This document shows positions 1-52,058 of a stretch of DNA of 64,000 nt, one piece after another. The notes beneath the pieces are model-generated. The model made no database searches and was not told the origin of the DNA. It worked only from the letters and a program-made list of their open reading frames with translations. Within the stretch, counting starts at the first letter, position 1, and the number at the start of each line of letters is the position of its first letter. This DNA is from an uncultured Acetatifactor sp. (GTDB lineage: Bacteria > Bacillota > Clostridia > Lachnospirales > Lachnospiraceae). Made by a program: the position numbers and the translations under genes. The stretch is taken from the NCBI GenBank assembly GCA_910587755.1, contig CAJUNZ010000003.1, forward strand, positions 1,908-65,907, read 5' to 3'.

Positions 1-72
1 TGCACATCCATTACCTGCTGCATCTGCGGAATCCCGCGCCTGAGTTCCCATGGGTCCTGGCATACCCAATAC

Positions 73-91
73 CCGTCCCCAAAAGGGACGG
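73..91. terminator. GC-rich hairpin (CCGTCCC-CAAAA-GGGACGG), possible 3' end or processing site
   Basis: 7-bp perfect stem with no clear U tract. Confidence 0.3.
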
Positions 92-167
92 CTTCCAATG
101 CCGTTCTTGTTTTTATCTGCTCAGACAGTACCTGCCTTAAGCTATCAAAAGAATTTTCCCGCAGTCC

Positions 168-342
168 TGTTCCCGTTTCCGGTTCTGGTCAAATACAGCC
201 TGACGGCGCATTCATCCACGGAATCCTTCATAATGAACCTGTGTCATCTATTTCTCAATTCAAACCTTACCTGCTTCATCATCACATCTATTCTGAACTC
301 TTAATTCAAATTTTTTCCGGCCTATCCTTTGCCGTCCACGCC
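168..342 (-). ncRNA. Candidate omega/guide RNA region downstream of the dead TnpB
   Basis: Non-coding region directly after the stop, where TnpB/TldR RNAs usually lie. Hairpin potential at 211-237; reads ...GTCAGGCTGTATTTGAC-CAGAACCGG. Position-based inference only. Confidence 0.35.
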
Positions 343-1668
343 TCAAGTCTCACCAGCATTCCCGGCCTTCAGCTTTTTTCCCCGGTTCAGCACATTTACA
401 GCTGTATTCTGTCTCTCCGGCATCTCCTGTCCGCAGGAATTGCAGCGGAATATATCCCCTTCCTTCCTGCCCTCCGCCCCGCAGCGGCAGCATTCGGTGC
501 TGATACCCTTTCCAAACACCTCCGCAAGCTCCACGGACCGTTCCCTGCACTTGCGTTCCAGCCTCTTTTTCACATAGCCTCTCTGCCACATGTTCAGACC
601 CGCATTCACTTTCCGGTTCACTCCTGCTTTCACCATACCAGGAAGTTTTGGAATATACACCACTCCGGGCTTTTCTGTCTCCAGCAGCCGGTTGATCTCC
701 GCATTCACATAAGCGTGCAGCGCCGTCTCCAGCCGCCTCTTTCCCGCAGTATATTTTTTCATGCCCGGATTATTTTCCGCATTTCTGCGGTGACGGGACA
801 GCCGCTCCCTGACATATTCCGTCAGCGCGGACTGATATTCAAAATATTTCTCCCCATACATCTGCCCCGTATGAGTGACAAACATGCACCGAAGCCCCAG
901 GGCCAGGCCGATTTCCCCTTCATATCCTCTAGGGTGCCTCTGCTTTACCTCCACCGGCACATTCAAGGTAATGTTGCCTTCCTTCGGATAAAGCCGAAGG
1001 TATATCTGCCTGGAGTAGCGATTGTTATCCGTGAGCAGAATGAAAAGTCTCTGACGACTCTCTTTCATGGAAATGTATATCCCATGATCGGCATATCTGT
1101 ATCCCTTGGGCGAAATGGTAAATCCATCCGCCGTATCCGTGTGAGGTTTTACCAGGTGTCTCCTGACCTGCCTGCGCAGATACTGGTCCAGCCTGTATGC
1201 ATCCACACCTGCTCTGAGGGCCCCATAAGTCTCCCTCCAGTCCCCTCGAAGATCCGGTTCTCCTCCCGCCAGGACCGCTTCAAAGCAGCGGCTCTGTTTC
1301 ATCACAAAACGCAAATAATGTCTGTCTTCTGCAGTCAGCTCTGCATTTACCTGAATGTTCTTCTCTATCCGGCTCTTGATACGGGTCCATTGGCTTTTAA
1401 TATCACCCAAAGCATCAAAGATAGAGAGGTAAAAGAACACCGATGGAAGTCCCAGCCTCTCCCGCAGCCCGCTTTTGGTCATTTCATTCTGCACCGTATA
1501 GCCTGGATAAATCTTGGGGAGCCCCCCTATACCTCCATACCGGTCATACACAAAATTGCGAACTTTTCTGCAATCTTCCGCAATCTCCTGCAGCCTTGCC
1601 ATATCCCTGACAGAAATCGGTTCCTTGTTATACTGATATACTGTCTTGTATATTGTCTCCTGGGCCAT
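343..1668 (-). CDS. Nuclease-dead TnpB/Cas12f-like protein (TldR-like), 441 aa
   Basis: C-terminal RuvC plus zinc-ribbon layout: EIGLALG (RuvC-I, D->A256), VVYIPKL (RuvC-II, E->P340), ISTECCRCG...FRCNSCG zinc finger, PERQNTAVNV (RuvC-III, D->R419). Start set at ATG 1668 after GAGGGTGG. Confidence 0.85.
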   Translation of the reverse strand: MAQETIYKTVYQYNKEPISVRDMARLQEIAEDCRKVRNFVYDRYGGIGGLPKIYPGYTVQNEMTKSGLRERLGLPSVFFYLSIFDALGDIKSQWTRIKSRIEKNIQVNAELTAEDRHYLRFVMKQSRCFEAVLAGGEPDLRGDWRETYGALRAGVDAYRLDQYLRRQVRRHLVKPHTDTADGFTISPKGYRYADHGIYISMKESRQRLFILLTDNNRYSRQIYLRLYPKEGNITLNVPVEVKQRHPRGYEGEIGLALGLRCMFVTHTGQMYGEKYFEYQSALTEYVRERLSRHRRNAENNPGMKKYTAGKRRLETALHAYVNAEINRLLETEKPGVVYIPKLPGMVKAGVNRKVNAGLNMWQRGYVKKRLERKCRERSVELAEVFGKGISTECCRCGAEGRKEGDIFRCNSCGQEMPERQNTAVNVLNRGKKLKAGNAGET

Positions 1669-1721: not shown

Positions 1722-1750
1722 ATTTCGTAGAATAACTATTTCTACGAAAT
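1722..1750. repeat. Left inverted repeat / putative tyrosine-recombinase crossover site
   Basis: ATTTCGTAGAA-TAACTAT-TTCTACGAAAT, a perfect 11-7-11 palindrome. 1724-1749 is the exact reverse complement of 2149-2174. Confidence 0.85.
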
Positions 1751-1789
1751 CCTGCCGCAAACCTGATATTTTCTGCACCCAAAGCTTGT

Positions 1790-1927
1790 TTGACCAGAAT
1801 TTTGACGGTAAATACCTTTATGAAAGAACCGCCTTTTCGCCCGTCTCACCCTCCGCAGAGCTTGTTTTCTGCGCCTTTTCCAGACAGAGCCAGGACATTT
1901 CCTTGACCAGAATTTTGACGGCGAATA
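1790..1927 (+). repeat. Two 25-bp direct repeats TTGACCAGAATTTTGACGG(TA/CG)AATA (1790-1814, 1903-1927), arm-type-like sites
   Basis: 23/25 identical; internal TTGAC repeat at 12-bp period. A third degenerate copy lies at 2092-2116. Confidence 0.8.
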
Positions 1928-1972
1928 AAATTTTTTCAGGCCCTCTCTGATCAGAAACTTTCTCTGACAAGT

Positions 1973-1999
1973 TAAGAAACTGGATCCCTATGTCGATAG
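1973..1999 (+). promoter_or_regulatory. Possible sigma28/SigD-type promoter
   Basis: TAAG-N15-GTCGATAG versus consensus TAAA-N15-GCCGATAA. A second GTCGATAT lies at 2034-2041. Confidence 0.4.
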
Positions 2000-2091
2000 A
2001 GAAAGTGTTTGTACAGTTTTAGAATAATTTATTGTCGATATCTTTAATATTCTGCCAGAAATTACTTGAAAACTTAATTCCTGAAAAGTGA

Positions 2092-2120
2092 TTGACAAAT
2101 TATTTGACGGTATATATAAT
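2092..2120 (+). promoter_or_regulatory. Perfect sigma70/SigA promoter inside the invertible segment
   Basis: TTGACA (2092-2097), 17 bp, TATAAT (2115-2120). Confidence 0.9.
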
Positions 2121-2147
2121 GAGTACAGTGGCTTTTGCGCCAGAGAG

Positions 2148-2176
2148 GTTTCGTAGAAATAGTTATTCTACGAATA
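2148..2176. repeat. Right inverted repeat / putative tyrosine-recombinase crossover site
   Basis: GTTTCGTAGAA-ATAGTTA-TTCTACGAATA; the spacer is the reverse complement of the left-site spacer. Confidence 0.85.
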
Positions 2177-2391: not shown

Positions 2392-3054
2392 ATGCAATTT
2401 GAGCTGATGGCGTCAATGATGTGCGCCAACTATGGCAATCTTGAAAAAGAAGTAAAGGCCTTGGAGGAGGGAGGAATAGACTCTTTCCATATAGATATCA
2501 TGGACGGGCGGTATGTGCCGAACTTTGCCATGTCCCTGAACGATCTGCGGTACATCACTATGGCCACAAAAAAGCCTGTGGACGTGCATTTGATGATAGA
2601 GCACCCCTGCAATAATATCGGTATCTTTTTAGGGTGTCTTCGTAAGGGCGACACGGTATATATCCATCCGGAGGCGGAATACCATCCTTCCACCACCCTG
2701 CAGAAAGTCATCAACGCAGGGATGATTCCCGGTATTGCAATCAATCCCGGCACTTCTGTGGAGACGGTAATGGAGCTTCTTCGCATTGTGAGAAAAGTGC
2801 TTGTGATGTCCGTGAACCCCGGAAATGCCGGACAGATGTACCTGCCCTATGTGGGTAAAAAGATCACCAAACTGCTGGCCCTAAAAGAAGATATGGACTT
2901 TGAGATCTGCTGGGACGGCGCCTGCAGTGCGGACAAGATTCTGGAATATGCCCCCAAGGGAGTGAAAGGGTTTGTGCTGGGCACCACACTGCTCTTCGGA
3001 AAAAAAGAATCCTATGGCGAAACCCTGCAGAATATTCGGGAACTGAAATTTTAG
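2392..3054 (+). CDS. Ribulose-phosphate 3-epimerase family protein (Rpe/AlsE-like)
   Basis: ASMMCAN, FHIDIMDGRYVPNF, DVHLMI, GIAINPGT, VLVMSVNPG motifs; AGGAG SD before ATG 2392. Confidence 0.92.
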   Translation: MQFELMASMMCANYGNLEKEVKALEEGGIDSFHIDIMDGRYVPNFAMSLNDLRYITMATKKPVDVHLMIEHPCNNIGIFLGCLRKGDTVYIHPEAEYHPSTTLQKVINAGMIPGIAINPGTSVETVMELLRIVRKVLVMSVNPGNAGQMYLPYVGKKITKLLALKEDMDFEICWDGACSADKILEYAPKGVKGFVLGTTLLFGKKESYGETLQNIRELKF

Positions 3055-3932: not shown

Positions 3933-5276
3933 TCAGAGTTTGGGATTTTGTATCATAATAGGTTTCCCTGTTTTCTGATACAGCCACACAATGGAACTCC
4001 AGTCGCCGTAGTAGCCGTCGCTCACCGCTATGGCCCGATCCATGCTGGGGGAGTCATCATAGATGCCCCAGCCAGCCTCTCTGTACCTGCACACCATCTC
4101 CCCATACTCCCCCATAAGCTCCGGACGCATGGATGCAAGCGTAGCCTCCGTCAGCGGATGGGGCCTCCACAGCAGCACCACATCTTCCCGGTTCTCCTCA
4201 AAAATCTGCAGGTTTTCCTTGATCTTTTTCATCATGGCCTCACTGTCCTTCAGCAGGGCCGTCACGCTGGTATTGTAGAATATAACTTTTCTGCGGCTGC
4301 CATCCTCCCTCTGAATCAGCCTGTCCCAGCTCTCCGGCAGCTCAAAGTCCTCTCTCCGCAGACCGCAGACCCGATCCACCTTGGGGGAGCCCAGTCCCAG
4401 TATCTTTTTCTCCCATGTAGGCCGAAGACTCTCATCTGTGTGCCTGGTGAGCACATCCACATAAATCTGCCGCATGGCCTCCGACTGCACCACCACCCGG
4501 TCCGCATTCATCACCCCTGCAGTGGTGACAAAATGCTCCATTCCTTCCACTGCCTCCTTATCGGAGGGGTCGATCTCGGCCAGGATAAAGTAGGGAATAT
4601 AGACCAGCTTATCTGTAAACTGCTTCAGGTTTTTAGAGTAAAAAAACGGAGGCACACTGGTGACAAAATTTCCCTCATCATAAGGGTTGTGAATGAAAAT
4701 AACATCCGGGTGTCTGGCCTCAAAATCATAGGATTCATAGCCCATCACCGGCACTTCCTCCGGGTACTGGGCAATCTCATAGTGCAGTTCCCCGAAAGAA
4801 CCGTCAGGATTCTTGTCATAATAGGGAATAGGGATAACCAGTGCCCTGCAGTCCGGATCTTCATCCGCCGCCTTCCACACAGACTCCAGAGAATCCCACA
4901 TGGAAGCTTTATAAGGCAGAAACACCACTTCCCTCTGAATCCGAATCTCATGGTTGATGGAATTTTCCACCCGCACCAGAAGTTTTCTGAGCTTTTTCTG
5001 CATCTGCCATGTATTCACGGAAGCTCCCTCCAGAAGCTTCTCACAGAACTGGTACAGAACCTCGCAGTACTCCTCCAGGCAGCGGACCGTCTCCGTCCCC
5101 TCCCCCTCCGTACTGTCAACCAGAGTGCCGATACCTATGGCCCCCTGCTGACACTGCTCCATAAGCTCTGCCGCGCCCTGAACCCGTTTATTCTCAATCA
5201 GTTTCACAATCTCCCCATGTGCCTCACTGAGCACTTCTATGGTCTCCAGGCACTGCTTCTTCTGAAAATTTCTCAT
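3933..5276 (-). CDS. CDP-glycerol/polyol glycerophosphotransferase (TagF-like) family protein
   Basis: LGSPKVD, LLWRPHP, YYGDWSSIVWLYQKTGKPI motifs; next to CDP-polyol synthesis genes. Confidence 0.65.
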   Translation of the reverse strand: MRNFQKKQCLETIEVLSEAHGEIVKLIENKRVQGAAELMEQCQQGAIGIGTLVDSTEGEGTETVRCLEEYCEVLYQFCEKLLEGASVNTWQMQKKLRKLLVRVENSINHEIRIQREVVFLPYKASMWDSLESVWKAADEDPDCRALVIPIPYYDKNPDGSFGELHYEIAQYPEEVPVMGYESYDFEARHPDVIFIHNPYDEGNFVTSVPPFFYSKNLKQFTDKLVYIPYFILAEIDPSDKEAVEGMEHFVTTAGVMNADRVVVQSEAMRQIYVDVLTRHTDESLRPTWEKKILGLGSPKVDRVCGLRREDFELPESWDRLIQREDGSRRKVIFYNTSVTALLKDSEAMMKKIKENLQIFEENREDVVLLWRPHPLTEATLASMRPELMGEYGEMVCRYREAGWGIYDDSPSMDRAIAVSDGYYGDWSSIVWLYQKTGKPIMIQNPKL

Positions 5277-5321
5277 TCCTGCCCCCTGCCGGGCACTGTA
5301 CGCGCCCTAAATCATATTCTT

Positions 5322-5391
5322 AAAACCGGATCCGATATACCTGATCCGATATATCAGATCCGAAAAACCAAATCCAAAAAAACAGATCCAA
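5322..5391. repeat. Five tandem 14-bp degenerate repeats
   Basis: aaaaccggatccga tatacctgatccga tatatcagatccga aaaaccaaatccaa aaaaacagatccaa. Confidence 0.8.
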
Positions 5392-5508
5392 AAAACTTGA
5401 AACCATCCCTTTCCTGCCTGCGGAATTTCCTGTCCGACGGCATTCCTCCGCCGGATATCTTCCCGTTCCCGCCCTTAGAACTGTGCCGAAAAAAGATGTA
5501 CGCCAAGT

Positions 5509-6564
5509 TCAAAACATTGTCATAATTTTAATATAATCCTGGGTCTTATCCCGCATAATATGAAGCCCCCGATGCAGCTCCTCCAGAGAATATCTGTGAG
5601 TGATAAGCCTGCCGGGATCCACCCGCTTCGCCCCAAGACGTTCCATGCAGTAGTTCCAGTCATCATCCGCCCCATGGGTAAACGAAGAGTTCCAGGTTCC
5701 CGTGATCCGCAGCTGATGGCGCAGAATTTTCCAATAGGTTTCCATCTCCAAAGCCATGGAGGAGGCAGGATTTCCCATGAGACAGATCCGCCCCCCTGGA
5801 GCAGTGTTTTCCACCGCCTGGGCCACCGTCTCATTCTTTCCCACACACTCAAAGAACACATCCGCCCCCAGGCCGCCGGTCCGCTCCCGGATCCACTGAC
5901 CCGGATCCTGAGTCCTGCTGTCACAGTAGTCCCCCGATTCCATCCCCAGTTCCAAAACCATCTTCCGCTGGGCCTCCTTGTTGCCCACCACCAGAATCCT
6001 GCCCGCCTCCTGGACCCCCGCCTCTCTCAAAAACATCAAAAGCAGCAGGCCGATGGTTCCCAGGCCGCACACCACAGCGGTCTCCCCCTTCTCCGGCAGA
6101 GCCCTCCGCATGGCATGCACCGCCACCGCCATAGGTTCCAGCATGGCAGCCTCCTCATAGGAAACCTGTTCCGGCAGCGGAATCAGATTCCAGGCCGGAA
6201 CCGCCGCATACTCTCCAAAGCCCCCGTCCCTGCGGGAACCCAGATAGCCATAGTTTTGGCACATCTCGAACTGTCCTTTTCTGCAGGGCAGGCACTCCCT
6301 GCAGGGAATCAGCGGAAACACACCTGCCCGCCGCCCCTGCCAGGCAGGATCCACTCCCGGTCCCGTCCGGACCACCAGGCCGGAAAACTCATGCCCCGGA
6401 ATCAGGGGATGTACATGGGCCCCCGTCCTGTATATTCTCGGAATATCCGACCCGCAGATCCCCGCTGCCTTTACCTGCAGCAACACTTCCCCCTTAGCCA
6501 GAATCGGCTCCTCCACCGTCTCCCAGCGCAGGTCATCCACCCCCTGCAGCACCCATGCCTTCAT
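5509..6564 (-). CDS. Zinc-dependent polyol(-phosphate) dehydrogenase (GatD/TarJ-like)
   Basis: GICGSD, GHEFSG, CRECLPC...C zinc site, GLGTIG Rossmann motif. Confidence 0.9.
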   Translation of the reverse strand: MKAWVLQGVDDLRWETVEEPILAKGEVLLQVKAAGICGSDIPRIYRTGAHVHPLIPGHEFSGLVVRTGPGVDPAWQGRRAGVFPLIPCRECLPCRKGQFEMCQNYGYLGSRRDGGFGEYAAVPAWNLIPLPEQVSYEEAAMLEPMAVAVHAMRRALPEKGETAVVCGLGTIGLLLLMFLREAGVQEAGRILVVGNKEAQRKMVLELGMESGDYCDSRTQDPGQWIRERTGGLGADVFFECVGKNETVAQAVENTAPGGRICLMGNPASSMALEMETYWKILRHQLRITGTWNSSFTHGADDDWNYCMERLGAKRVDPGRLITHRYSLEELHRGLHIMRDKTQDYIKIMTMF

Positions 6565-6606
6565 CCCTTTCCTCCTCCACAAAAACTTCCGGCAGCGCCC
6601 ATCTTC

Positions 6607-7314
6607 TTATTCCCCGGAACATCTGCGGGCAAGAATCTCCTCAAACCGTCTCAGATCCTCCATCGTGGTTATCTTGAAATTCCCCTCATCCCCGGGGATT
6701 ATGGCAATGTCCATGCCCGCCAAAACCGCAGGTTCCGTGGAACCGTTGATTCCCCTGATCCCATCCGGAAGCAGTCTCAGGTTGGCCTCATAATACCGCC
6801 CCAGCCGAAACACCTCCGGTGCCTGCCCTGCAAAAATTTCACTGCGTTTTAACAGGGATGTGATGGTCTTCCCGTCGCTGCTGGCGTACACTGTATCCTT
6901 CATGGGAAGTACCGGCAGAACACCCTCGTGGGACTGTGCCGCCTCCAGGCAGGCCGAGACCATCTCCTCCGTCAGCAGAGGCCTGGCAGCGTCATGGATG
7001 AGCACACAGTCCTCCTCCCCTCCATAGGCCCTGATATCCTCCAGCCCCTGGAGAATAGAAAGCTGTCTGTTCTCCCCCGGATCAGAAAAACCCCGGAATT
7101 TTCCATCCCTGTCAAATGTCTCCAGACACTCCCGAATCTTTTCCCTCCAACAGGGCTGAGCCACAATCTGAATGGCGTCCACCCCCCTGTGCAGGGCCAG
7201 ACATTCTATGCAGTACCCTATGACGGGCCGTCCCCCTGCCTCAATATACTGCTTTGGAATCTCCGCCCCCAGGCGCAGCCCTGCACCCCCGGAGAGTATC
7301 AGTGCAATATTCAT
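6607..7314 (-). CDS. IspD/TarI family cytidylyltransferase
   Basis: LSGGAGLRLG...PKQY, LIHDAARP, QAPEVF, NFKITT motifs. Confidence 0.92.
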   Translation of the reverse strand: MNIALILSGGAGLRLGAEIPKQYIEAGGRPVIGYCIECLALHRGVDAIQIVAQPCWREKIRECLETFDRDGKFRGFSDPGENRQLSILQGLEDIRAYGGEEDCVLIHDAARPLLTEEMVSACLEAAQSHEGVLPVLPMKDTVYASSDGKTITSLLKRSEIFAGQAPEVFRLGRYYEANLRLLPDGIRGINGSTEPAVLAGMDIAIIPGDEGNFKITTMEDLRRFEEILARRCSGE

Positions 7315-7417
7315 AGTTCCCCCATCCTGGACCAACTGCCTTCCCAAATCAACATGGCCCCTGCGAATACCTCACCCCGCAGACCAATAAACAAAAAAAC
7401 ATCGAATCTGCAATGCC

Positions 7418-16577: not shown

Positions 16578-18716
16578 TTACCACCAGATAATGTAGAGCA
16601 GCGTCAGGGACAGGCCGATGCAGAAAAGCAGCAGTCCGAAGGAAAGACTCCTCTGGATAATGTTGTTGGTTTCCTTGAACTGCTCGTTTTTCAACGCCGC
16701 CAGGTGTACATAGTCCCTGCGCCCAGGGTTTCTTCTCCGCCAGGTATGGTTGGCCAGGCCCTGGAAAGCGTTCATCACCCTCCCCGCCGCTGCCGTAAAC
16801 ACATTGCCCTCAGCCCTCTCCCCAGGCAGAGGGCTGTCCCGGTAAATCGTCCTGCGCAGCGCCACCACAAGGCCATCCACAAAGCTGTCCAATATTCTGC
16901 AGAACACCCCTGAGACTGTGAAGAAAGCCCCCAAAACCGCCGGGCTGCTCAGGAGTTTATCCAACGCCCCGCACACTCCTCCCAGAACCCAGGGCAGGAA
17001 CCTCAGCAGAAGGGGCCTGTAAAAGATTTCCTCCAGATCCAGCCGCCGGGGCCACCTGTCCACATACTCTCCCTCTTTATTCCGCAGCAGTTTTCGGACA
17101 AAAAACCAGTACACCAGCGCACCGATGGCAATGGAAATCAACCCGCCTTTTAAATTCCCGGGGCTGAAATAGGCTATGGCCTCCCCTGCCTCCTGCACCC
17201 CCAGAAATCCCTGAGCCTTCCGGGCCGCCCTTTCCATCAGGCCCTGGGGGCTCAGTCCCCAGACCAGCAGCAGGGCCGCGCTCCCGGCCAGGGCAAAGAC
17301 GGAAGCCGGGCTCATATAACGCTTCATGCCATCATACTTTTTCTGCAGGGCAGCATCTGTATTTTTCTCCAAAAAAACCGCCGCAAAAAGCTTCGCCATA
17401 TAGGCCACGGTCAGTCCGCCGGAGAACAGGAAAAGGTACTCCACCGTCCTGGTCAAAGTCCCTCCCCCGTACTCCACAATGCTCTCATGGAGCAGGGTCT
17501 TGCTGATATAGCCGCTGAAAAGAGGGATCCCCCCTATGGCCAGGGCCCCTGTGAGGAAAATGCCCCCAAGCAGGGGCTTCTTCCTGCCAAAACCCCGGAT
17601 GTCATTGAGATTCAGCCCATGGGCATTCATATAGACCACGCCTGCTGCCATAAAAAGCACCAGTTTTATCAGAGAATGATTCACCATATGCAGAAACACC
17701 CCATGGGCCGCCAGGATCCTGAATTCCTCCCCGCCGCCCTCCCCGGGCATTCCAAGCATCCCTGTCCCCACCAGGATAAAGCCGATCTGGGACATGGAGG
17801 AACAGGCCAGCGTCCTCTTCAGATCCACAGAAAACACCGCCAGCACCGCACCTCCCAGCATGGTTGCCGTCCCCAGGGCCAGAATCACCCTGCTCCAACC
17901 TTCATCCCGTGGAAACAGGCAGCAGCCAAGAATCAGCACGCCGTAGATCCCCGTTTTGGTCAGAATGCCGGACAGAAGCCCAGAGGCAGGAGCCGGAGCC
18001 ACAGGATGAGCTTTGGGCAGCCAGATATGCAGGGGAAACGCCCCGGCTTTTGCCCCAAAACCAAAGAGCATACACGCCCCGGCCACGTACAGCACCTTCT
18101 TCTCCCCACACGCCGCCGCAGCCCCCGGCAGGTCTCCCAGTGCCACCGTGCCCAGCTGATGGTACAGCAGGAAAATCCCCATGAGCATCACAAGGCCCCC
18201 GGCCACCGCCACCGCCAGATAGGTGGACGCCGCCTTCAGCGCCGCAGCGTTTTCCTCCTGGGCCACCCACACATAGGAAGTGAAAGACATAATCTCAAAA
18301 AAGATAAATGTGGTATATAAATCTCCGGACAGGAACACTCCCATAACCGCTCCCTGGGTCCACAGCAGAAAAAGATAAAAACGGCTCCGGTGGTGCAGAT
18401 GTCCAAAATATTCCCTGGAGAAAACCGCCGTCATCATCCACAGGAACGCCGCCACACAGCCATACAGGAGCCGGAATCCCTCCAGCACAAAGTGCAGCCC
18501 CAGGCCGCAGACCTCCGGAATGTCCAGGAACACGCCGGGGCCTCCGGAACAGAGACACAGCATAAGCACCGTAACTGCAAACTCCACCGCCACAGAGACA
18601 GTCACAATCCCATCCCGCAGTTTTCCTCCCCGGCAGGCCCGCCCTGCCCCATAGGCCAGAAGACCTGCCCCAAAGGGGAAAAACACTAAAAAAGCCAATC
18701 CCGTCTCCAAATTCAT
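16578..18716 (-). CDS. Mrp/complex I antiporter-like subunit (MrpA/D, NuoL-like)
   Basis: FIFFEIM, GAKAGAFPLHIWLPKAHPVAPAPASGLLSG, KRTLACSSMSQIG. Confidence 0.9.
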   Translation of the reverse strand: MNLETGLAFLVFFPFGAGLLAYGAGRACRGGKLRDGIVTVSVAVEFAVTVLMLCLCSGGPGVFLDIPEVCGLGLHFVLEGFRLLYGCVAAFLWMMTAVFSREYFGHLHHRSRFYLFLLWTQGAVMGVFLSGDLYTTFIFFEIMSFTSYVWVAQEENAAALKAASTYLAVAVAGGLVMLMGIFLLYHQLGTVALGDLPGAAAACGEKKVLYVAGACMLFGFGAKAGAFPLHIWLPKAHPVAPAPASGLLSGILTKTGIYGVLILGCCLFPRDEGWSRVILALGTATMLGGAVLAVFSVDLKRTLACSSMSQIGFILVGTGMLGMPGEGGGEEFRILAAHGVFLHMVNHSLIKLVLFMAAGVVYMNAHGLNLNDIRGFGRKKPLLGGIFLTGALAIGGIPLFSGYISKTLLHESIVEYGGGTLTRTVEYLFLFSGGLTVAYMAKLFAAVFLEKNTDAALQKKYDGMKRYMSPASVFALAGSAALLLVWGLSPQGLMERAARKAQGFLGVQEAGEAIAYFSPGNLKGGLISIAIGALVYWFFVRKLLRNKEGEYVDRWPRRLDLEEIFYRPLLLRFLPWVLGGVCGALDKLLSSPAVLGAFFTVSGVFCRILDSFVDGLVVALRRTIYRDSPLPGERAEGNVFTAAAGRVMNAFQGLANHTWRRRNPGRRDYVHLAALKNEQFKETNNIIQRSLSFGLLLFCIGLSLTLLYIIWW

Positions 18717-18728
18717 ACCAGCCCTCTC

Positions 18729-20198
18729 TCAAAAGTCCGCAATCTCTTTCAGCATTCTCACAAGGGGTTCCGAGTACAGGCCAAGGCAGAGAATGCACAC
18801 CGCCAGCACCCCCAAAGGCACAAGCATCCTCCAGCCGGGCTCCCGCACCTCTTCTATCTCCGCCGGGTCAAACCCTTTTTTCGGAAAAAATACTCTCACC
18901 AGGATACTCAGCATATAAACTGCCGTCAGAAGCGCCGAGATCATCAGCGCCGCCGTCCCCGCCAGGGCAAGAGGCTCTCCGCTGTCCACCGCCCCCTCCG
19001 CCAGATACCACTTGCTGACAAAGCCGCATAGACCAGGCACCCCCGTCAGGGCCAGCGCCGACACCCCAAAGCAGGCAAAGACCTTTGGCATCTTTCTGCC
19101 CAGACCATCCAGCTGGTAGATATAGTTTTTGCCCGTCTTATGAATCACCGCCCCCGCGCAGAGGAAAGAACAGCTCTTCATAAAAGAATGACACACCAGA
19201 TGCGTCAGCGCCCCCGCCATTCCCATGGGGGTCATCAGCGTCACCCCAAACAGAATATAGGACAGATTGCCCACTGTGGACCAGGCCAGACGCCTCTTGA
19301 AATGTGTCTCCTTCACCGCCCGGCTGCAGCCGTAGACAATGGTAAAGACTGCCAGCCCCATCACCAGATACTGGGCCCAGGTGCCCCGGAGCAGTTTTGT
19401 GCCGAAGCTGAAATACGTCACCCGCATAACCGCAAACGCACCTGTGTTGACCACCGCCACACCATGGAGCAGGGCCGTCACCGGGGTGGGGGCCACCCCG
19501 GCCTTGGGCAGCCATGAAGAAAAAGGCCAAAGGGCTGTCTTTACACTGAACCCGCAGAAACAGAGCACATAAACAGCAAGGAGCGTGTCCTTCTTTTCAT
19601 GGACGTTGACCAGGTCCAGGACGCCTCCAGGCACAAAAGAAGAAGTCGTTCCATAGACCAGGACAAAAATCATGCCGATAAAGGCAAAAGCCGCGCCCCC
19701 CAGCATATAGTACAGATAAGTCCTGCTGGCCAGAACCGCCTCCCTGGTTCTGGTGTACATCACCAGGGGCAGGGTAACAAGGCTCAGCATCTCAAAGAAG
19801 AAATACATGGTCAGGATATTCTCCGACAGGGCCACTCCCAGAGTCACCCCATAGGTGGCCACATAAAACAGGAAAAACGACTTCTCCTTTTCCTCCCCCT
19901 CCATATACTCAAACCCATACAGCAGGGCAAGAGGCCAGAGAAAGGCCACAAGCCCTCCATACACAGCCCCCATCCCATCCAGGCCCAGAGTGATGCTCAG
20001 ATCATGGGTAAAACGGAAAACCGTAAGCGTTTTGTCAGGGGCATGAAAAAGCAGCCAGAACACCAGGAGAGAATTGACACAAACCGCCGTCTCCAGGTAA
20101 ATGCACATGGCCTTTCTGCTCCGAAAGGATAACATTGGCGTCAAAATGCCCGTGAACATGGGCAGCAACACCACTATCAACATTAAGACTTCCCTCAT
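18729..20198 (-). CDS. MrpD-like antiporter subunit
   Basis: YFFFEM, WLPKAGVAPTPVTALLH, KRRLAWSTVGNLSY. Confidence 0.9.
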   Translation of the reverse strand: MREVLMLIVVLLPMFTGILTPMLSFRSRKAMCIYLETAVCVNSLLVFWLLFHAPDKTLTVFRFTHDLSITLGLDGMGAVYGGLVAFLWPLALLYGFEYMEGEEKEKSFFLFYVATYGVTLGVALSENILTMYFFFEMLSLVTLPLVMYTRTREAVLASRTYLYYMLGGAAFAFIGMIFVLVYGTTSSFVPGGVLDLVNVHEKKDTLLAVYVLCFCGFSVKTALWPFSSWLPKAGVAPTPVTALLHGVAVVNTGAFAVMRVTYFSFGTKLLRGTWAQYLVMGLAVFTIVYGCSRAVKETHFKRRLAWSTVGNLSYILFGVTLMTPMGMAGALTHLVCHSFMKSCSFLCAGAVIHKTGKNYIYQLDGLGRKMPKVFACFGVSALALTGVPGLCGFVSKWYLAEGAVDSGEPLALAGTAALMISALLTAVYMLSILVRVFFPKKGFDPAEIEEVREPGWRMLVPLGVLAVCILCLGLYSEPLVRMLKEIADF

Positions 20199-20216
20199 GG
20201 CAGCCAGATCCTTTCT

Positions 20217-21776
20217 CTAAAATACCGCTGTGGCAATCCTGGCGGCATACTCCGATACCGGACCGGGGAAAACCCCCAGCCAGACAGCCAGAGCCGCCAG
20301 CACCACAAGAGGAACCAGCATGGCCGGGGACAGCTCAGGCCCCAAAGCCTTCCTGGAACTGTGAGCCTGGGCTCCTTCACCGGGCTCCTCTATTCCATGG
20401 GGCTCCTCCAGTCCCTGGAGATGCTCCGAACCTGGGAAAAATCCTTTCATGGCAATGGGCAGCAGATAGCCGGCGGTCAGCAGGGCACTCACCAGCAGAA
20501 CCACCGGCCCCAGCCAGGAAAACACTCCTGTCCCCGACTGCAGAGCCCCTTCCGCCAGATACCATTTGCTGACAAATCCCCCTGTGGGCGGAATCCCCAC
20601 CAGCGTCAGGGAGAGCAGCAGATAGCACCACATGGTCTTGGGCATTTTCTTTCCTATCCCCCCAAGTTCCTCCGCCCTGGTATAGCCAAAACGGTAGACA
20701 AACACACCAGCCGTCAGAAACAGACCGCATTTCACCACCGCATGCACCACCACATGGAGCAAGGCCCCTGTAAAGGCGTCCGGTGTCAAAAGGGATAGCC
20801 CGAACATAATGTAGGAAACCTGGCTCACTGTGGAATAGGCCAGCCTTTTCTTAAAGATCTGCTCCCGGTATGCAAGCATGGATCCCATAAACACCGTCAG
20901 CAGAGCCAGCGTCATCCACACATACTGCACCCAGGTGCCCTGCAGAAAATCAGTCCCCGCCACATAGAACACCACCCGCACCACTGCCAGCACACCGGAC
21001 TTTACAATGACACCGGAGAGCACAGCGGAAGCCGGGGACGGCGCCACCGGATGGGCCGTGGGCAGCCACGCGTGAAGGGGCACCATGCCCGCCTTGGCCC
21101 CGAAACCCACCAGCGCCGCAAACACGGCGATCAGAAGAATCCCCTCATGCCCCTGTGCGGCAGCCTGGTTCAGGGTCCCTCCCGGCGCAAAATTCAGCGA
21201 GTCACTGTACCGATACAGAAAGAAGACAGAAAACAAGCCCCCATATGCGCCGCACATGGAATAAAACAGATACTTCAGCGCAGCCATAACCGCCTCCCTT
21301 GTCCCATTGTGGAGCACCAACGGCATGGAGACCAGGGTTGTCAGCTCATAGAACAGATACATGGTCACAAGATTGCCGGAAAAATCCAGCGCCACCAGCA
21401 CACCATACAGTATCAGGTAGAAGCCGTAATATCTTTTTTCCTTCCCCTCATGCTTCATATAGACAAAGGCAAACAGAGCGGACAGAACCCATATAAGGCT
21501 CACCACCGTCACAAACAGCCTTCCCAAAGCATCAACATGAAAATACACAGGAACCCCCTCAAAGAGGGTAAACAGTACCAGCTCCCTGTCCCCCGACCAG
21601 GCCGCCGCCAGGGCCAGGGCCACAGAAATCCCAAGAACCGCGCTCACATACAGGCACAGCCTGGCCCGCTCTCTCCTGCCGCCCGGGGCAGTATTTTTTT
21701 CCCGAAAAGAAAAAAACAGCAGAAGGGCGCCGAAAAACATTGGCAGCACTATGGGAATCAGCAGAAATGCATCCAT
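20217..21776 (-). CDS. MrpD-like antiporter subunit
   Basis: YLFYEL, PLHAWLPTAHPVAPSPASAVLSG, KKRLAYSTVSQ. Confidence 0.9.
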   Translation of the reverse strand: MDAFLLIPIVLPMFFGALLLFFSFREKNTAPGGRRERARLCLYVSAVLGISVALALAAAWSGDRELVLFTLFEGVPVYFHVDALGRLFVTVVSLIWVLSALFAFVYMKHEGKEKRYYGFYLILYGVLVALDFSGNLVTMYLFYELTTLVSMPLVLHNGTREAVMAALKYLFYSMCGAYGGLFSVFFLYRYSDSLNFAPGGTLNQAAAQGHEGILLIAVFAALVGFGAKAGMVPLHAWLPTAHPVAPSPASAVLSGVIVKSGVLAVVRVVFYVAGTDFLQGTWVQYVWMTLALLTVFMGSMLAYREQIFKKRLAYSTVSQVSYIMFGLSLLTPDAFTGALLHVVVHAVVKCGLFLTAGVFVYRFGYTRAEELGGIGKKMPKTMWCYLLLSLTLVGIPPTGGFVSKWYLAEGALQSGTGVFSWLGPVVLLVSALLTAGYLLPIAMKGFFPGSEHLQGLEEPHGIEEPGEGAQAHSSRKALGPELSPAMLVPLVVLAALAVWLGVFPGPVSEYAARIATAVF

Positions 21777-21789
21777 CCAAAACTACCTC

Positions 21790-23289
21790 CTAGTCAAACA
21801 TCTCAAATCCCCTCTGGATCAGCCGTACAATGGGGTCGGAATTCAGCCCCAGTATCAGATTCAGCAGAATAAGGCACACCAGCGCCGCGGACTTGGCAGG
21901 CTGCTCCCATACCCCAATCTGCCTGCCGCCCACGCTTCCTTCAGGGGCGGGTGTGTAGATCCGGATGACGGTCTTCATAAAATAGACCGCATTCAGTATG
22001 GTGCTGAGAGCAAGAGCGATAACCGTGGGAAACATCTTATGGGCATGTCCCACCGCCGCCTGGGCAAAGAAAAATTTTGAGATAAACCCCGAAAACATGG
22101 GCAGACCCACCATGGACAGGGAACCCGCCAGAAACGCCGTTCCCGCCAGTTTGTTCCGCAGCCCCGCCCCTGTGATATCCGCAAATCTGTCACTGTTTCC
22201 GGAGGCATCCCCCAGTCCCGACGCCGCCACAAACAGCAGCGCTTTGGTGGCTCCGTGGGACAGCACATGGTAAAGGCCCGCCACAATTCCCGCCTCCGTG
22301 GCAAGCCCCAGTCCCATATAGATGTATCCGATCTGTGCTACCGAAGAGTAGGCTATCATCCGTGTGAGATTGTTTTCCTTGATAGCGCTCAAAGAACCCA
22401 TGATCATCCCTATGATACCGAACACAAACAGCACATTGACCACTTTGCTCTCGTTTACCACATTGAATCCCACCACCCGGCAGAAGATCTTGATCAGCAG
22501 GAAAATATATCCCTTGGACACCAGGGAAGAGAGAATCGCTGAAGAAGACAGAGTAGAATACCCATAGGCATCCGGCAGCCAGGTGTGGAAAGGATACAGA
22601 GCACTCTTCATGGCCAGCCCCACGGACATAAGCCCCAGGGCCACCATCAGGGAGAGATGGTGCTGACCGGTCTGAGCCAGGAACTGCACCTGTTCTCTGA
22701 TATTGCTCATAAGCAAATGCCCCGTCACCGCGTACAGATAGCAGATGCCCAGCAGCAGCAGACCGGAACCTGACAGGCTCATAATCATATACCGGGCAGC
22801 CGCCTCGTAAGTCCTTCCGGTCTGGCGGATCATAATCAGCCCGCAGGCGGAGATGGTATTGATCTCCACAAACACATATGCCGTGAACAGGTCATTGGTG
22901 TAGATCAGGGCCAGCAGGGAACACAGCAGCAGATTCACCATGACATAGTACAGATTCTGTTTGCTCTCCTGAATCTGTTCCTCCCTCTCCCGGATCCCCC
23001 CAAGCATACACAGCAGCATCACCGCGCAGAAAAAACATGCCATAAATGCCTCTAAGATGCCCACACGGATCTCATTTCCCCAGGGGGCAGGAAAATGTCC
23101 CATCTGATACACATAAGACTGCCCTGTTGAAATCACATGCTGCAGCACAAAGGCGGACATCACGCCCGTTGTCACAATGACCCCCGTATTCACCCGTTTT
23201 GCCCATTTCCCGCTGAGAATGGAGCACAGAGGGCCTGAAAACAGGGAGAGAAGTATGGATAGAAAAGGGAAATTCTGCACAAAAGCCAT
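21790..23289 (-). CDS. mrpD: MrpD-like antiporter subunit
   Basis: YVFVEI, PFHTWLPDAY, RMIAYSSVAQIGY; TAATG overlap with mrpC. Confidence 0.88.
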   Translation of the reverse strand: MAFVQNFPFLSILLSLFSGPLCSILSGKWAKRVNTGVIVTTGVMSAFVLQHVISTGQSYVYQMGHFPAPWGNEIRVGILEAFMACFFCAVMLLCMLGGIREREEQIQESKQNLYYVMVNLLLCSLLALIYTNDLFTAYVFVEINTISACGLIMIRQTGRTYEAAARYMIMSLSGSGLLLLGICYLYAVTGHLLMSNIREQVQFLAQTGQHHLSLMVALGLMSVGLAMKSALYPFHTWLPDAYGYSTLSSSAILSSLVSKGYIFLLIKIFCRVVGFNVVNESKVVNVLFVFGIIGMIMGSLSAIKENNLTRMIAYSSVAQIGYIYMGLGLATEAGIVAGLYHVLSHGATKALLFVAASGLGDASGNSDRFADITGAGLRNKLAGTAFLAGSLSMVGLPMFSGFISKFFFAQAAVGHAHKMFPTVIALALSTILNAVYFMKTVIRIYTPAPEGSVGGRQIGVWEQPAKSAALVCLILLNLILGLNSDPIVRLIQRGFEMFD

Positions 23290-23666
23290 TATTTCCCCTC
23301 CTTTTTCAGCTGCGTGGAGATTGCATCCAGATCCAGAGTGTGGTATCTCCGGTACAGGCATATGGTCAGGGACAACATCAGCGCCGTCACCGACACGGAA
23401 ACCACAATCCCTGTCAGCACCAGGCCGCTGGGGATGGGGTTGATATAGGCCTCCACACTCTGAATGCCTTCCTCCACCACCGGCGCCTTCCTGCCTGAAA
23501 TATAGCCCTTCAGGGCAAGAAAGAGATACACGGCCGTGTCCATGATATTCAGCCCAATGATCTTCTTGATCAGATTCCGCTGCAGGAGCAGATTGGAGAA
23601 CCCAATGCCAAACAGGATCATGGCGACGGCCTCCTCATAATTCTCTAACAAATATTGTATCCGCAT
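23289..23666 (-). CDS. mrpC: MrpC/MnhC subunit
   Basis: NLIKKIIGLNIM, NPIPSGLVLTGIVV; AAGGAG SD. Confidence 0.92.
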   Translation of the reverse strand: MRIQYLLENYEEAVAMILFGIGFSNLLLQRNLIKKIIGLNIMDTAVYLFLALKGYISGRKAPVVEEGIQSVEAYINPIPSGLVLTGIVVSVSVTALMLSLTICLYRRYHTLDLDAISTQLKKEGK

Positions 23667-23681
23667 AAATCTCCTTAATTG

Positions 23682-23923
23682 TAGTCGCTGCGCGACGGCT
23701 CTAAAGAATGAATACATTCGGCGCACTTTGCTGAGAGACAGCATTCATTCGCAAGTAATTCTCATGAATGCTGCTCTCGTGCGCCTTCTTGTATTCACTA
23801 TTTTATAGTCGCTGCGCGACGGCTCTAAAGAATGAATACATTCGGCGCACTCTGCTGAGAGACAGCATTCATTCGCAAATAATTCTCATGAATGCTGCTC
23901 TCGTGCGCCTTCTTGTATTCACT
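23682..23923. repeat. Tandem duplication of a 118-bp hairpin element (23682-23799, 23806-23923)
   Basis: Two mismatches between copies; each copy has nested inverted repeats forming a ~90-nt stem. Confidence 0.95.
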
Positions 23924-24885
23924 TAATAATTTCCTTTTCGGAACATGGCGTAAAAGGTGTACATGGTGCCTGCCACCACCACGCCCACGCAGATGTTCAA
24001 CAGCAGGATCAGGCCGCTGCTGAGAATGGCCCCGGGGGTTCCCAGGGGCACAATGCTCTCAATGTGGTTTGCGCCTGTGTAAAAGGAATAGCTCTTGGCC
24101 AGGCTGTAGCAGGCCAGGGCACAGAAGCTCACCCTGCGGAAAGTCTTGGCCGTGAAGAATTTTTCCGTTCTGGCAAAGCCGAAGGCATTCAGGTACAGAA
24201 TCAGCCCTGCGCCGATGACCGCCCCGCCGGAAAAGCCGCCTCCCGGCCCCAGATGTCCCGCCAGGATAATGTAGATGCCAAAGATAAAAATGGGCGGCAC
24301 CAGCACTCTTGCCACAGTCTGCAGGATCACATCGTTCTTGGGCTCATAGCGTCTGTCATTGTCCTCATCCTCCGCCTGCTCTTTCTTTTTGTCCGTCCGC
24401 AGCAGAATCAGCACCGTGCAGGCGGCAGCAAACAGAACATGGGACTCCCCCAGAGTGTCAAAGGCACGATAGTCCAAAATCATGCCTGTGACAATATTCA
24501 CCGCCCCTGTCTCCTGTAAGCCGTTCTCAATATAGCGCTCTGCCACCTGATTGTTCACCGGATTCTCCGGGTGTCCAAATACAGGGAGATCAGACACTGC
24601 TGCCAAAAGCATAACCACTAAAAAAATACAGAAGCCTACGCTGAACACCCGGTAAAATCTGCGGAAAATTCGGATTTCTACATTGTTCTCCAAGTCGTAG
24701 ACCCGCTGTCTCAGCTGTTTTTCATCCTCTTCCCTGCGCTCCTTTGCCTCCGGACTTTCCGTGACAGGCTCCTGCCTGCCCATCTCCATTCCCTCTGCAA
24801 AAGGATCCTCCGCCCCCTCCAGCCAACGCTTCAGTCTGCAGGAAACAGTTTTTTGATACTCCTCCTCAGGCACCTTCCTGCTCAT
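23923..24885 (-). CDS. mrpB: MrpB/MnhB subunit (MbhE + MnhB domains)
   Basis: NIVTGMILDYRAFDTLGE, GHLGPGGGFSGG. Confidence 0.9.
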   Translation of the reverse strand: MSRKVPEEEYQKTVSCRLKRWLEGAEDPFAEGMEMGRQEPVTESPEAKERREEDEKQLRQRVYDLENNVEIRIFRRFYRVFSVGFCIFLVVMLLAAVSDLPVFGHPENPVNNQVAERYIENGLQETGAVNIVTGMILDYRAFDTLGESHVLFAAACTVLILLRTDKKKEQAEDEDNDRRYEPKNDVILQTVARVLVPPIFIFGIYIILAGHLGPGGGFSGGAVIGAGLILYLNAFGFARTEKFFTAKTFRRVSFCALACYSLAKSYSFYTGANHIESIVPLGTPGAILSSGLILLLNICVGVVVAGTMYTFYAMFRKGNY

Positions 24886-25144
24886 CCGTCTCCTCCAGAC
24901 TTTCCTTCTTCATAATGGCATTAATCTTCTTTAATGTCACAAAAAACAATACCGTAGTGACCCCTGCTCCCACCGCGGCCTCAGTGACAGCCAGATCCGG
25001 AGATTCCAGCAGCACCCAGATAATGGACATAATCAGGCTGTAGGACATGAAAATCAGTACGGTGTTCAACAGCTTCCTGGACAGGCTGGCCGCAATGGCG
25101 CAGACCACCAGAAATCCCAGCAGAATACAAGTGAATACGGTCAC
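24866..25144 (-). CDS. DUF4040/MbhD-like Mrp subunit
   Basis: SPDLAVTEAAVGAG motif; GTG start after AAGGAGG. Confidence 0.88.
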   Translation of the reverse strand: MTVFTCILLGFLVVCAIAASLSRKLLNTVLIFMSYSLIMSIIWVLLESPDLAVTEAAVGAGVTTVLFFVTLKKINAIMKKESLEETDEQEGA

Positions 25145-25154
25145 GGCTTCCTCC

Positions 25155-25508
25155 TTATTTATAGTTCTGCGTCTGTTCATCCAGTTCCTTCGTCCTGTAA
25201 TGTCTCCCGCTCTTCTCATTGGTGCTCACCTCCAGCCTGGCAATCAGGTGGGATGACACCGGTGAGGAAAACCAGAGAAACACAATCACAAGGAACAGTT
25301 TCAGGGAAGTAAAATTCAGGCCGCTTATCACAATCAGCCCCAGCAGCGCAAAGCCGATGCCCAAGGTATCGCCGATTGCCGCCGCATGCATCCGGTTCAG
25401 CACATATCGGAACCGGAATACCCCAATAATTTCAATGATAAAGGTGCCCAGACCGCACAAAAGCAGTCCGCCACCCACCAGAAAGCGCACCCATTCCAGT
25501 ACACTCAC
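25155..25508 (-). CDS. mrpG: MrpG/MnhG subunit
   Basis: GVFRF...NRMHAAAIGDTLG, SPVSSHLIAR. Confidence 0.92.
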   Translation of the reverse strand: MSVLEWVRFLVGGGLLLCGLGTFIIEIIGVFRFRYVLNRMHAAAIGDTLGIGFALLGLIVISGLNFTSLKLFLVIVFLWFSSPVSSHLIARLEVSTNEKSGRHYRTKELDEQTQNYK

Positions 25509-25873
25509 GACGACTCCTCCTTTTCCCGGCTCTCCTGTGCTGCTCTACGGCCGTTCTCCCTGTCTTTTTCCTGTTTTCCCTCCAGATACACTCCCATATA
25601 CACCTTCACCAGGACAATGACCGCCAGAAAACTGATCATCGCATAGATCAGACAGATGTCCGCCAGATACCCCTCCTCCAGCATCAGCGCCAGGATGGCA
25701 ATCATCACAATGACCATGGTGCCCGTCATATTCACCGAAACGATCCTGTCCGCAACCCTTGGGCCGATGATGGCGCGCACCAGACACAGAACCACCAGCA
25801 GAGCCAGCACAATGAGGGCCCCTGTAAAAAAAATGCTGTAGGCCCTATCCAGGCCCTCAATTCCCCTTCCCAT
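25505..25873 (-). CDS. mrpF: MrpF/MnhF subunit
   Basis: RAIIGPRVADRIVSVN, DICLIYAMISF. Confidence 0.92.
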   Translation of the reverse strand: MGRGIEGLDRAYSIFFTGALIVLALLVVLCLVRAIIGPRVADRIVSVNMTGTMVIVMIAILALMLEEGYLADICLIYAMISFLAVIVLVKVYMGVYLEGKQEKDRENGRRAAQESREKEESS

Positions 25874-25915
25874 CCTTCCTCCTCTCCGGTTAGACAAGCG
25901 CCACCGGAAAACCAA

Positions 25916-26380
25916 TCAGGCATTCTCCTCAAATCTGTGAATGTACTCCACAAATTTGCTGTTCCTGATCCCCTCTGCCATGGACTCATCCAGGCAGTGG
26001 ACCGTGTACTCAGAACCTTCCAGCGTAACCGTGATGGTTCCCGGCGTCAGCGTGATGGCGTTTGCCAGCATTGCCTTTCCCGCCCGGGTCCGCAGATCCG
26101 TGTGGAAGTGAACCAGCGCGGGCTCTATCTCCTCCTTCTGGGTCAGAATCAGGTGGATCGCGTTCACATTGGCCCTGACAATCTCCACCACCAGCAGACG
26201 ACAATATTTCAGCAGCAGAAAAATATTCTTATAGATTCTTACCTCTTTGGCAAGGCTGTAATCCACAAACTTACAGGAAAAAGCCAGCAGCGCACCTGCA
26301 ATGACTGCTCCAAAAACACAGATCTCCAGAGTTACCCTTCCATTGAAGATAATCCACAGCAGAAAATATATCAAGAACAC
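25916..26380 (-). CDS. mrpE: MrpE/MnhE subunit
   Basis: LANAITLTPGTIT, VHCLD; GTG start after GGGAGG. Confidence 0.92.
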   Translation of the reverse strand: MFLIYFLLWIIFNGRVTLEICVFGAVIAGALLAFSCKFVDYSLAKEVRIYKNIFLLLKYCRLLVVEIVRANVNAIHLILTQKEEIEPALVHFHTDLRTRAGKAMLANAITLTPGTITVTLEGSEYTVHCLDESMAEGIRNSKFVEYIHRFEENA

Positions 26381-26440
26381 AGCGCACCTCCCTGCCGATG
26401 TTTTCCATTTCCCCACCGGCTTTCCAGATATCCGTGTATT

Positions 26441-45874: not shown

Positions 45875-45886
45875 AAACGCACCCCC

Positions 45887-47320
<1,434 letters not shown>

Positions 47321-48193: not shown

Positions 48194-48207
48194 AATCTGT
48201 CCTCTTT

Positions 48208-50283
<2,076 letters not shown>

Positions 50284-50296
<13 letters not shown>

Positions 50297-50826: not shown

Positions 50827-50885
50827 TCTATGCCTCCTTTCTGCCTCCCGTTAAAAAATGCAACCTGCATTTGCCGCATTCATCC

Positions 50886-51182
<297 letters not shown>

Positions 51183-51198
51183 CTACTCCACAGCTGCT

Positions 51199-51939: not shown

Positions 51940-52058
51940 ACTCTCACCTCCTCTTTTTCATTTTCTTTTTTATTCGGACGACTGTGCATTTTCACAGCCG
52001 CCTTTTCCCGGCATAAGGCAGCGCCTGCGGCCCCGTAATACCGCATTCCCGGAAAGCC

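Follow-up and report, generated by a model that had tools for sequence, protein, structure and literature searches.

A nuclease-dead TnpB and its RNA at the head of phase-variable surface operons of gut Lachnospiraceae

TldR repressors are described as nuclease-dead TnpB proteins that have no tnpA and carry an RNA directly downstream (10.1101/2023.11.30.569447). Some are found in phase-variable settings: csrA-tldR loci, preceded by Hin invertons, lie behind an invertase and an invertible promoter and cross-target paralogues, so a TldR behind an inverton exists and represses (PMC13418256). The oppF-TldR works with a guide of 9 nt (10.64898/2026.09.22.753285). A dead Cas12f/TnpB fold also serves in transcription control in the dCas12f-sigmaE activator, which derives from a CRISPR effector (PMC13472631; structures 9n9c and 9n9m). 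TnpBs of the IS607 family and IStrons are described as keeping D-E-D (or D-E-x), residing in mobile elements, taking a variable guide from flanking DNA and using a G-rich TAM (10.1101/2023.11.20.567912). Finally, in the section of their survey on transposase associations, Altae-Tran et al. 2023 reported fully inactivated TnpBs with a phage-integrase-like tyrosine recombinase upstream, in random orientation and within inverted repeats, which were taken as attachment sites; the recombinase was sometimes missing and the site left (PMC10691335).

A second set of systems concerns the heads of very long operons. The conAn system consists of a gene with a large downstream RNA and forms a cis-acting bipartite antiterminator (PMC8191782), and UpxY follows invertible promoters of capsule operons (PMC11685472). 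Like these two, LoaP is the first unit of a very long operon (PMC12691694).

Here we describe a locus that shares traits with both sets. It lies at the left end of a stretch of 64,000 nucleotides (the window) from an uncultured Acetatifactor sp., for which the original prediction, made from the sequence alone, had proposed a TnpB/Cas12f-like gene domesticated as a binding-only factor. The features of the gene and its RNA are as follows.

343..1668, minus strand: nuclease-dead TnpB gene, 441 aa, with WED, REC, RuvC and zinc finger (open reading frame, profile matches, AF2 model, structure comparison)
901..903, minus strand: A256, in place of the RuvC-I Asp (alignment of relatives)
649..651, minus strand: P340, in place of the RuvC-II Glu (alignment of relatives)
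412..414, minus strand: R419, in place of the RuvC-III Asp (alignment of relatives)
433..492, minus strand: C4 zinc finger formed by C393, C396, C409 and C412 (sequence, CxxC...CxxC)
1..238, minus strand: 5' part of a conserved structured RNA, omegaRNA-derived (conservation and covariation)

The predicted gene is indeed intact, with no internal stops in its 441 codons. GLALG, YIPKL and PERQNTAVNV are all present as claimed, the CxxC...CxxC finger is complete, and tnpA is absent beside the gene, as is a transposon left end. The protein matches Pfam PF07282 above the cut-off and NCBIfam NF040570 with an E value of 5e-15, which is below the curated cut-off; NusG families are not among its profile matches. 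In the AF2 model (pLDDT 92.8), the proposed comparison of structures gave ISDra2 TnpB (8h1j) as the best match (Z 19.1, rmsd 4.4, 337 aligned residues), Cas12f structures reached Z 18-19, and matches span residues 4-436. The protein is thus a member of the TnpB/Cas12f superfamily that, judging by the model, keeps the WED-REC-RuvC-zinc finger fold. Homodimer prediction returned a score of 0.00, which speaks neither way.

The three replacements are a property of a whole family. A protein search found 1469 relatives among 8000 candidates scored. Among the query and its best 120 relatives, A256 is kept in 120/121, P340 in 121/121 and R or K at position 419 in 119/121, so that close homologues share the triple replacement and do not retain D-E-D. 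In the active sister group, D, E and D/G/H/N occupy the corresponding positions of the alignment. At the level of loci the triad is absent from 87 of 88 proteins, and the lone exception comes from an active-sister locus. The family was found in 268 metagenome stretches. Its named records are from Lachnospiraceae, to which it mostly belongs, and the ESM Atlas contributed only unnamed Bacillota clusters. Strong matches occur in 17/401 genomes sampled from the same family and in 4/401 of an order-level sample, one of these outside the family; sequencing runs that contain DNA of the locus are mostly from mouse gut or faeces. The Acetatifactor genome itself has three copies of dead tnpB, one of them cut short.

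For phylogeny, FastTree was run on 73 sequences (the query and representatives of 380-560 aa, two chimeric ones left out) with midpoint rooting only. The deepest split (SH 100 under this root) places 21/21 triad-less proteins on one side and 52 proteins with D-E-x on the other. An annotated relative of the active side lies behind an IS607 transposase. By sequence, the nearest active relatives of the dead clade are IS607-type TnpBs, which share 20-26% identity with dead TnpB. This sister group suggests an origin separate from the known TldR clades, in a tree drawn without known TldR sequences. The closest active relatives themselves are group I intron-like elements with TnpB (L163:2180-4680 and L164:2180-4640); they are inserted in phage genes, one of them for dUTPase, and have a small divergent ORF and no tnpA.

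A decaying transposon remnant without function would be the most trivial explanation, and a few copies are in fact broken by internal deletion, stop or truncation. Against it, the same replacements recur in 120 homologues, and the dN/dS comparison that had been suggested as a check gave about 0.07-0.2 across the family, which means purifying selection. The median is 0.07 in 121 divergent pairs and 0.08 in their RuvC part (the pairs are not independent), and 0.10 in the 10 closest pairs. In addition, both-side changes have accumulated in 35 of the 52 pairs of the adjacent RNA, and neither tnpA nor a left end accompanies the gene. We count decay as refuted by this conservation and consider it extremely improbable. 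The proposed choice of domestication over decay therefore holds: D-E-D is replaced throughout a family under purifying selection with IS607-type active relatives, the RNA is conserved and the genomic slot is fixed. We are nearly certain that three catalytic residues were lost once in an IS607-type TnpB, and that the bacteria have retained this protein, along with its RNA, as the leading unit of operons that undergo phase variation and encode surface glycans, glycopolymers or surface proteins. We are equally confident of the switch in the family: a site-specific recombinase flips a strong promoter, and in the ON state a single transcript covers the recombination site, dead tnpB, its RNA and the payload genes.

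Several loci depart from the usual dead-TnpB pattern (L006, L041, L046, L049, L052 and L093). In one of these exceptions REC carries a deletion and the 3' end of the RNA is lost; others keep an intact protein but have no RNA, or are copies with a stop, frameshifts or a truncation. Other loci (L039/L040, L034/L066 and L070/L071/L086) combine near-identical dead-tnpB cassettes with different payloads, or have common payloads behind upstream parts that differ. Cassettes are thus shuffled between operons, and some of these cases may be assembly chimeras.

The conserved element 3' of the dead-tnpB stop is about 230-400 nt long with variable stem insertions. At the focal locus it extends about 140 nt beyond the left edge of the window (down to about position 1771 of contig C3); this outer portion contains the conserved GCCTTATT segment as well as the partner of the pseudoknot, and the glycan operon comes next. 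The RNA was detected in 71/76 non-redundant loci with enough sequence, and a divergent version is present in two of the other five; in two loci dead TnpB is intact and the RNA is not detectable. No Rfam family matched it at threshold. Its structure of 52 pairs is 94% paired, and covariation reaches 0.449 vs 0.197 after shuffling; since the structure was derived from the same alignment, these controls lean in its favour.

Comparison with the active relatives shows where this RNA came from. Like the omegaRNAs of IS607-family TnpBs and IStrons, the RNA at the right end of the active elements shares its motifs and the position of a pseudoknot with the RNA of the dead clade. When the flanks of two active elements are joined, the reading frames interrupted by the insertion become whole again; this defines the element ends and yields a GGAG flank at both reconstructed junctions. 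In three active elements a loop forms 4 bp with the terminal bases of the element, immediately ahead of the guide, an arrangement known from omegaRNAs. The same loop in the dead clade pairs over 7 bp, with 94% of cells paired in 45 sequences, so the extended pseudoknot takes in the first three bases of the former guide as three extra pairs in the ancestral seed. A distant member keeps 7/7 of these pairs with different letters, a compensatory pattern. Past the pseudoknot, an octamer conserved at 1.2-2.0 bits is followed by five A/T-rich bases, beyond which conservation ends; identity downstream of the octamer is 0.47 vs a baseline of 0.46. In the distant member the sequence after the pseudoknot differs from the octamer.

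The protein has changed as well. Where active relatives have basic residues in the REC helices (R57, R60, R77 and K80), the dead clade has Y, Q, V and Y almost without exception. In solved TnpB structures, these helices read the TAM. The changes would also fit a new, AT-rich TAM.

Ahead of the gene lies a promoter switch with the following parts.

1723..1749, no strand: gene-proximal recombination site, two inverted half-sites with a 7-nt asymmetric spacer, tyrosine-recombinase type
2149..2174, no strand: distal recombination site, inverted relative to the first
1723..2174, no strand: invertible segment, no recombinase gene inside, OFF for dead tnpB (flipping inferred from homologous loci)
2092..2120, plus strand: consensus sigma-A promoter, 12/12 matches, 17-nt spacer, 28 nt from the distal site
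1790..1814, no strand: repeat copy 1 of 3, probable integrase arm-type site
1903..1927 and 2092..2116, no strand: repeat copies 2 and 3, likewise probable integrase arm-type sites
2392..3054, plus strand: ribulose-phosphate 3-epimerase gene (rpe), faced by the promoter in the OFF state (profile match)

An inverton had been noticed near the gene, and it is delimited by inverted repeats of 26 nt without a mismatch (1724-1749 and 2149-2174), the proximal site being 55 nt ahead of the dead-tnpB start codon. The sigma-A promoter faces rpe now and, from its position, would face dead tnpB after inversion. The repeat motif of the probable arm-type sites also flanks integrase genes in cassettes of relatives. 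Only the OFF form of the focal locus was seen. In the family, upstream inverted repeats of at least 18 nt were found in 37/53 loci vs 0/42 control stretches. Near-identical strains (locus pairs L077/L078 and L127/L130) have the segment flipped relative to each other between unchanged flanks (2263 and 2312 bp, 99.7% identity), the promoter being turned too, and in serine-type cassettes the promoter occurs in both orientations. We rejected an alternative in which the repeats would mark the two ends of an integrative element, because the sites are inverted and the flipped segments lie between unchanged flanks. Upstream recombinases are integrases in 23/53 loci, XerD-like in 3/53 and of serine type in 3/53, with at least three types of sites; these recombinases belong to the invertible cassettes. 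Since all three classes serve, the partner of dead TnpB is the promoter slot and not one enzyme. The genome of origin has four related integrases, one without flanking sites, and we assume that these could act in trans on the focal inverton.

In three studies the RNA contigs reach no further than the proximal site, whereas a DNA run continues through it, and in two of the three studies one RNA contig spans dead tnpB, the RNA and the next gene. We take this as a weak hint of the ON transcript. The ON junction of the focal locus was absent from the contigs looked at, and the interior of the inverton had no RNA-contig cover, which is no proof by itself.

At one locus (L054:1-1260), a serine-type invertible promoter lies between two dead-tnpB genes arranged back to back; by inverting, it would switch expression from one dead-tnpB operon to the other. 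The second gene has a start from another subclade than its remainder, which is 97% identical to the focal gene, so it is either a product of recombination or an assembly chimera.

Could the complex act on the switch itself, by biasing inversion, or on its own DNA as a feedback roadblock? The gene always adjoins a recombination site, and the 2023 survey grouped such proteins with their recombinases (PMC10691335). Yet three unrelated recombinase classes with at least three types of sites are involved, no guide match to sites or promoters was found, and self-targeting needs no conserved octamer. Identical cassettes in the same genome, moreover, have no dead tnpB. We regard action on the switch or on the own locus as quite unlikely. 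Among the cassettes of the Acetatifactor genome (G000), those on C43, C111 and C112 are self-contained integrase invertons that lack dead tnpB, each preceding a paralogous surface-protein operon; the integrase without flanking sites is on C22.

What the switch controls is a long operon. A simple gene caller showed all downstream genes to be co-directional up to the end of the fetched DNA in 47/50 loci, vs 14/35 upstream control regions, so that dead tnpB heads a long operon as antiterminators do; downstream DNA is lower in GC in 30/35 loci. Payload families were assigned from the first 330 aa of the first three downstream genes in 47 loci (141 proteins). Sugar-nucleotide, glycosyltransferase or teichoic-type families are present in 28 of these loci, phosphonate genes in two, and an unclassified family related to CDP-glycerol transferases in 10 further ones; among the remaining seven, four begin with apparent membrane or secreted proteins, one could be assigned to no family and two are broken copies before unrelated genes. 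The focal operon continues, on a 99% identical contig, with a cytidylyltransferase, a glycerophosphodiesterase and LicD.

This context had been predicted to differ from that of fliC-, oppF- and csrA-linked TldRs and of the sigma-linked dCas12f, and it does: flagellin, OppF, CsrA and sigma-factor families account for none of the 141 proteins. Dead TnpB shares the general traits of TldRs, being nuclease-dead outside a transposon, linked to host genes and adjacent to an omegaRNA-like RNA. In contrast to TldRs, it heads glycan or surface operons served by three recombinase classes and a sigma-A promoter, its pseudoknot extends into the seed, and no target was found. Unlike the dCas12f of the sigmaE system, it comes from an IS607-type TnpB and heads the operon with which it is expressed.

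Neighbouring genes of the dead-tnpB loci on the upstream side were inspected by sequence only. In the window, CDP-glycerol-transferase-like, zinc alcohol dehydrogenase and IspD/TarI-like genes occupy 3933-7347 on the minus strand, opposite in direction to rpe, which places a ribitol-phosphate pathway beside the switch. An rpe homologue also lies directly ahead of a LoaP-like gene at L333. Further on, a multi-subunit membrane operon of Mrp-type antiporter appearance (16578-26416) and an ATP synthase operon (45470-52791) looked ordinary when the sequence was inspected. Downstream of the second dead-tnpB copy of the genome (C10:16720-18920), repeated palindromic operator-like sites surround an XRE-type regulator and a LysM-type gene.

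The conserved octamer raises the question of whether dead TnpB is a TldR-type RNA-guided repressor with a very short guide, the octamer plus a TAM. When its operon is ON, such a repressor would silence a competing surface locus or a conserved gene and thus impose mutual exclusion, much as csrA-TldR acts on other flagellins or UpxZ on other capsules. The modelled fold is that of a full TnpB with WED and REC kept, the RNA is omegaRNA-derived with 8 nt conserved past the pseudoknot, and the 9-nt guide of oppF-TldR and the Hin invertons of csrA-tldR loci, as those sources describe them, offer precedents. Several such operons per genome (three copies here) would give it something to exclude. Target searches, by contrast, gave it little. 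In 46 loci, the longest matches to the post-scaffold sequence at offsets -5 to +13 were at or slightly above control, and those at offsets -11 to -9 were mostly of 7-9 nt, a comparison that has no control. Best guide matches genome-wide were mostly 10-13 nt long (9-14 overall), about the level of chance. In 10 other genomes the 11-mer had 37 non-self matches vs 35 for the reversed control, with no common flank or gene. In the own genome, one 11-nt match to the focal segment falls where two genes meet in a different invertible surface operon (on C112), which speaks for a guide; it is weakened by being one among several offsets tried. Octamer variants covaried with none of the candidate targets tried, and the distant member has a different sequence there. 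An 8-9-nt guide with an unspecified TAM falls below the resolution of these searches. We consider this repressor possible but somewhat doubtful, and a close rival of the reading that we favour below.

Individual candidate targets were also dropped: the coding motif FLPYKAS, which does not covary with octamer variants; a CCTTAT stretch in promoter spacers, limited to one subclade; the palindromes resembling operators close to the C10 copy; on C80, a match that shares bases with a -35 box where the contig ends; and on C92, a match in a flagellin gene. The original idea of a binding-only factor thus survives in its domestication part, while RNA-guided DNA binding found no backing, since neither a target nor a TAM emerged in the loci or in 11 genomes.

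Another reading, which we favour tentatively, is that dead TnpB and its RNA form a cis-acting elongation or antitermination factor. In this model, dead TnpB would bind its own RNA within the nascent transcript of the ON state, and the complex, working in cis on RNA polymerase during elongation, would let the polymerase read through the long AT-rich operon. LoaP and UpxY do such work, and a gene followed by a large RNA at the head of a long operon is how conAn is laid out. The programmable guide role of the RNA would have been lost as the seed was absorbed into the scaffold. Three observations point away from targeting: the seed is paired in the pseudoknot, the basic REC residues are replaced, and LoaP-like NusG paralogues occupy the same slot. 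The full version of this proposal, in which TnpB-omegaRNA gave up RNA-guided targeting and became a processive antiterminator of phase-variable glycan operons interchangeable with LoaP, appears to us conceivable and is held with reserve.

The slot shared with LoaP is the main link to known antiterminators. In G015, the same type of site pair with an outward promoter is immediately followed by two LoaP-like genes and one for a sugar aminotransferase, and in the Acetatifactor genome a LoaP-like gene and glycan genes come after a serine-type site. In G134, the gene next after a LoaP-like one encodes a cytidylyltransferase, the same gene that stands second in the focal operon. LoaP-like genes occur elsewhere in 5/7 dead-TnpB genomes checked, with matches of 107-116 bits, below the curated cut-off of 125 bits. 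Within 107 dead-TnpB loci, 59 of them with at least 6 kb downstream and all of them related and redundant, the LoaP profile had no match, and it recovered three controls from the own genome. Such exclusion may mean just that there is one first-gene slot per promoter. LoaP-like paralogues head glycan operons singly or in tandem at C81:2749-5035 and C148:63-1313 of the own genome and at L330:1498-3168; those of C81 and L330 sit behind recombination sites. Dead TnpB is set apart from conAn, LoaP and UpxY in that its profile matches showed no homology to NusG families and its antitermination is proposed by analogy.

Some findings count against antitermination. Intrinsic terminators are not enriched in the payload (4/228 junctions vs 2/75 upstream), and a second scan of 45 loci found 175 in sense vs 152 in antisense, again no enrichment. 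Conservation of the octamer is also expected of a short guide, and the inverton-linked TldR that is known is a repressor. Of 26 integrase loci, 3 precede a dead tnpB and 23 do not, so such switches work without dead TnpB, and the two loci with an intact protein have no detectable RNA beside it.

The positional facts that suit an elongation factor would equally suit a post-transcriptional cap in cis. The RNA ends about 20-260 nt ahead of the next called start in most loci, the leader holds a terminator in 0/42 loci, and at the focal locus there is no minus-strand promoter-like site between the RNA and the next gene. RNase J carries out 5'-to-3' mRNA decay. After RNase cleavage, a complex left on the 5' end of the payload mRNA would block such decay or set translation of the first gene. 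This reading leaves the slot common with LoaP-like factors unexplained, and the RNA evidence consists of contigs; we hold it to be unlikely, and return to antitermination as the reading we prefer.

The inactive TnpB group of Altae-Tran et al. 2023 is probably the same clade, given its recombinase upstream in either orientation within inverted repeats. In contrast to what we describe, the accessible text of that survey mentions neither promoter inversion nor glycan operons, and it gives no RNA structure or function (PMC10691335). Our literature search, which covered mainly open-access texts, returned no paper linking the clade with promoter inversion, glycan operons or antitermination.

Taken as a whole, this locus is a real, domesticated and widespread dead-TnpB regulator, which may act as a guide-less elongation factor, our tentative choice, or as a short-guide repressor, to which we give almost as much credence. 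As gene, RNA and promoter fit within about 2.3 kb, the question is directly testable. The family represents a widespread, uncharacterised domestication of a Cas12 ancestor, tied to the ON/OFF control of sugars that Lachnospiraceae of the gut display on their surface to phages and to the host. If the repressor with an 8-nt fixed guide is real, it would bring a mutual-exclusion logic to capsules of Firmicutes, as UpxZ does in Bacteroides. If the antiterminator reading is true, a protein from the ancestors of CRISPR effectors would serve as a transcription elongation factor, a new activity for this fold.
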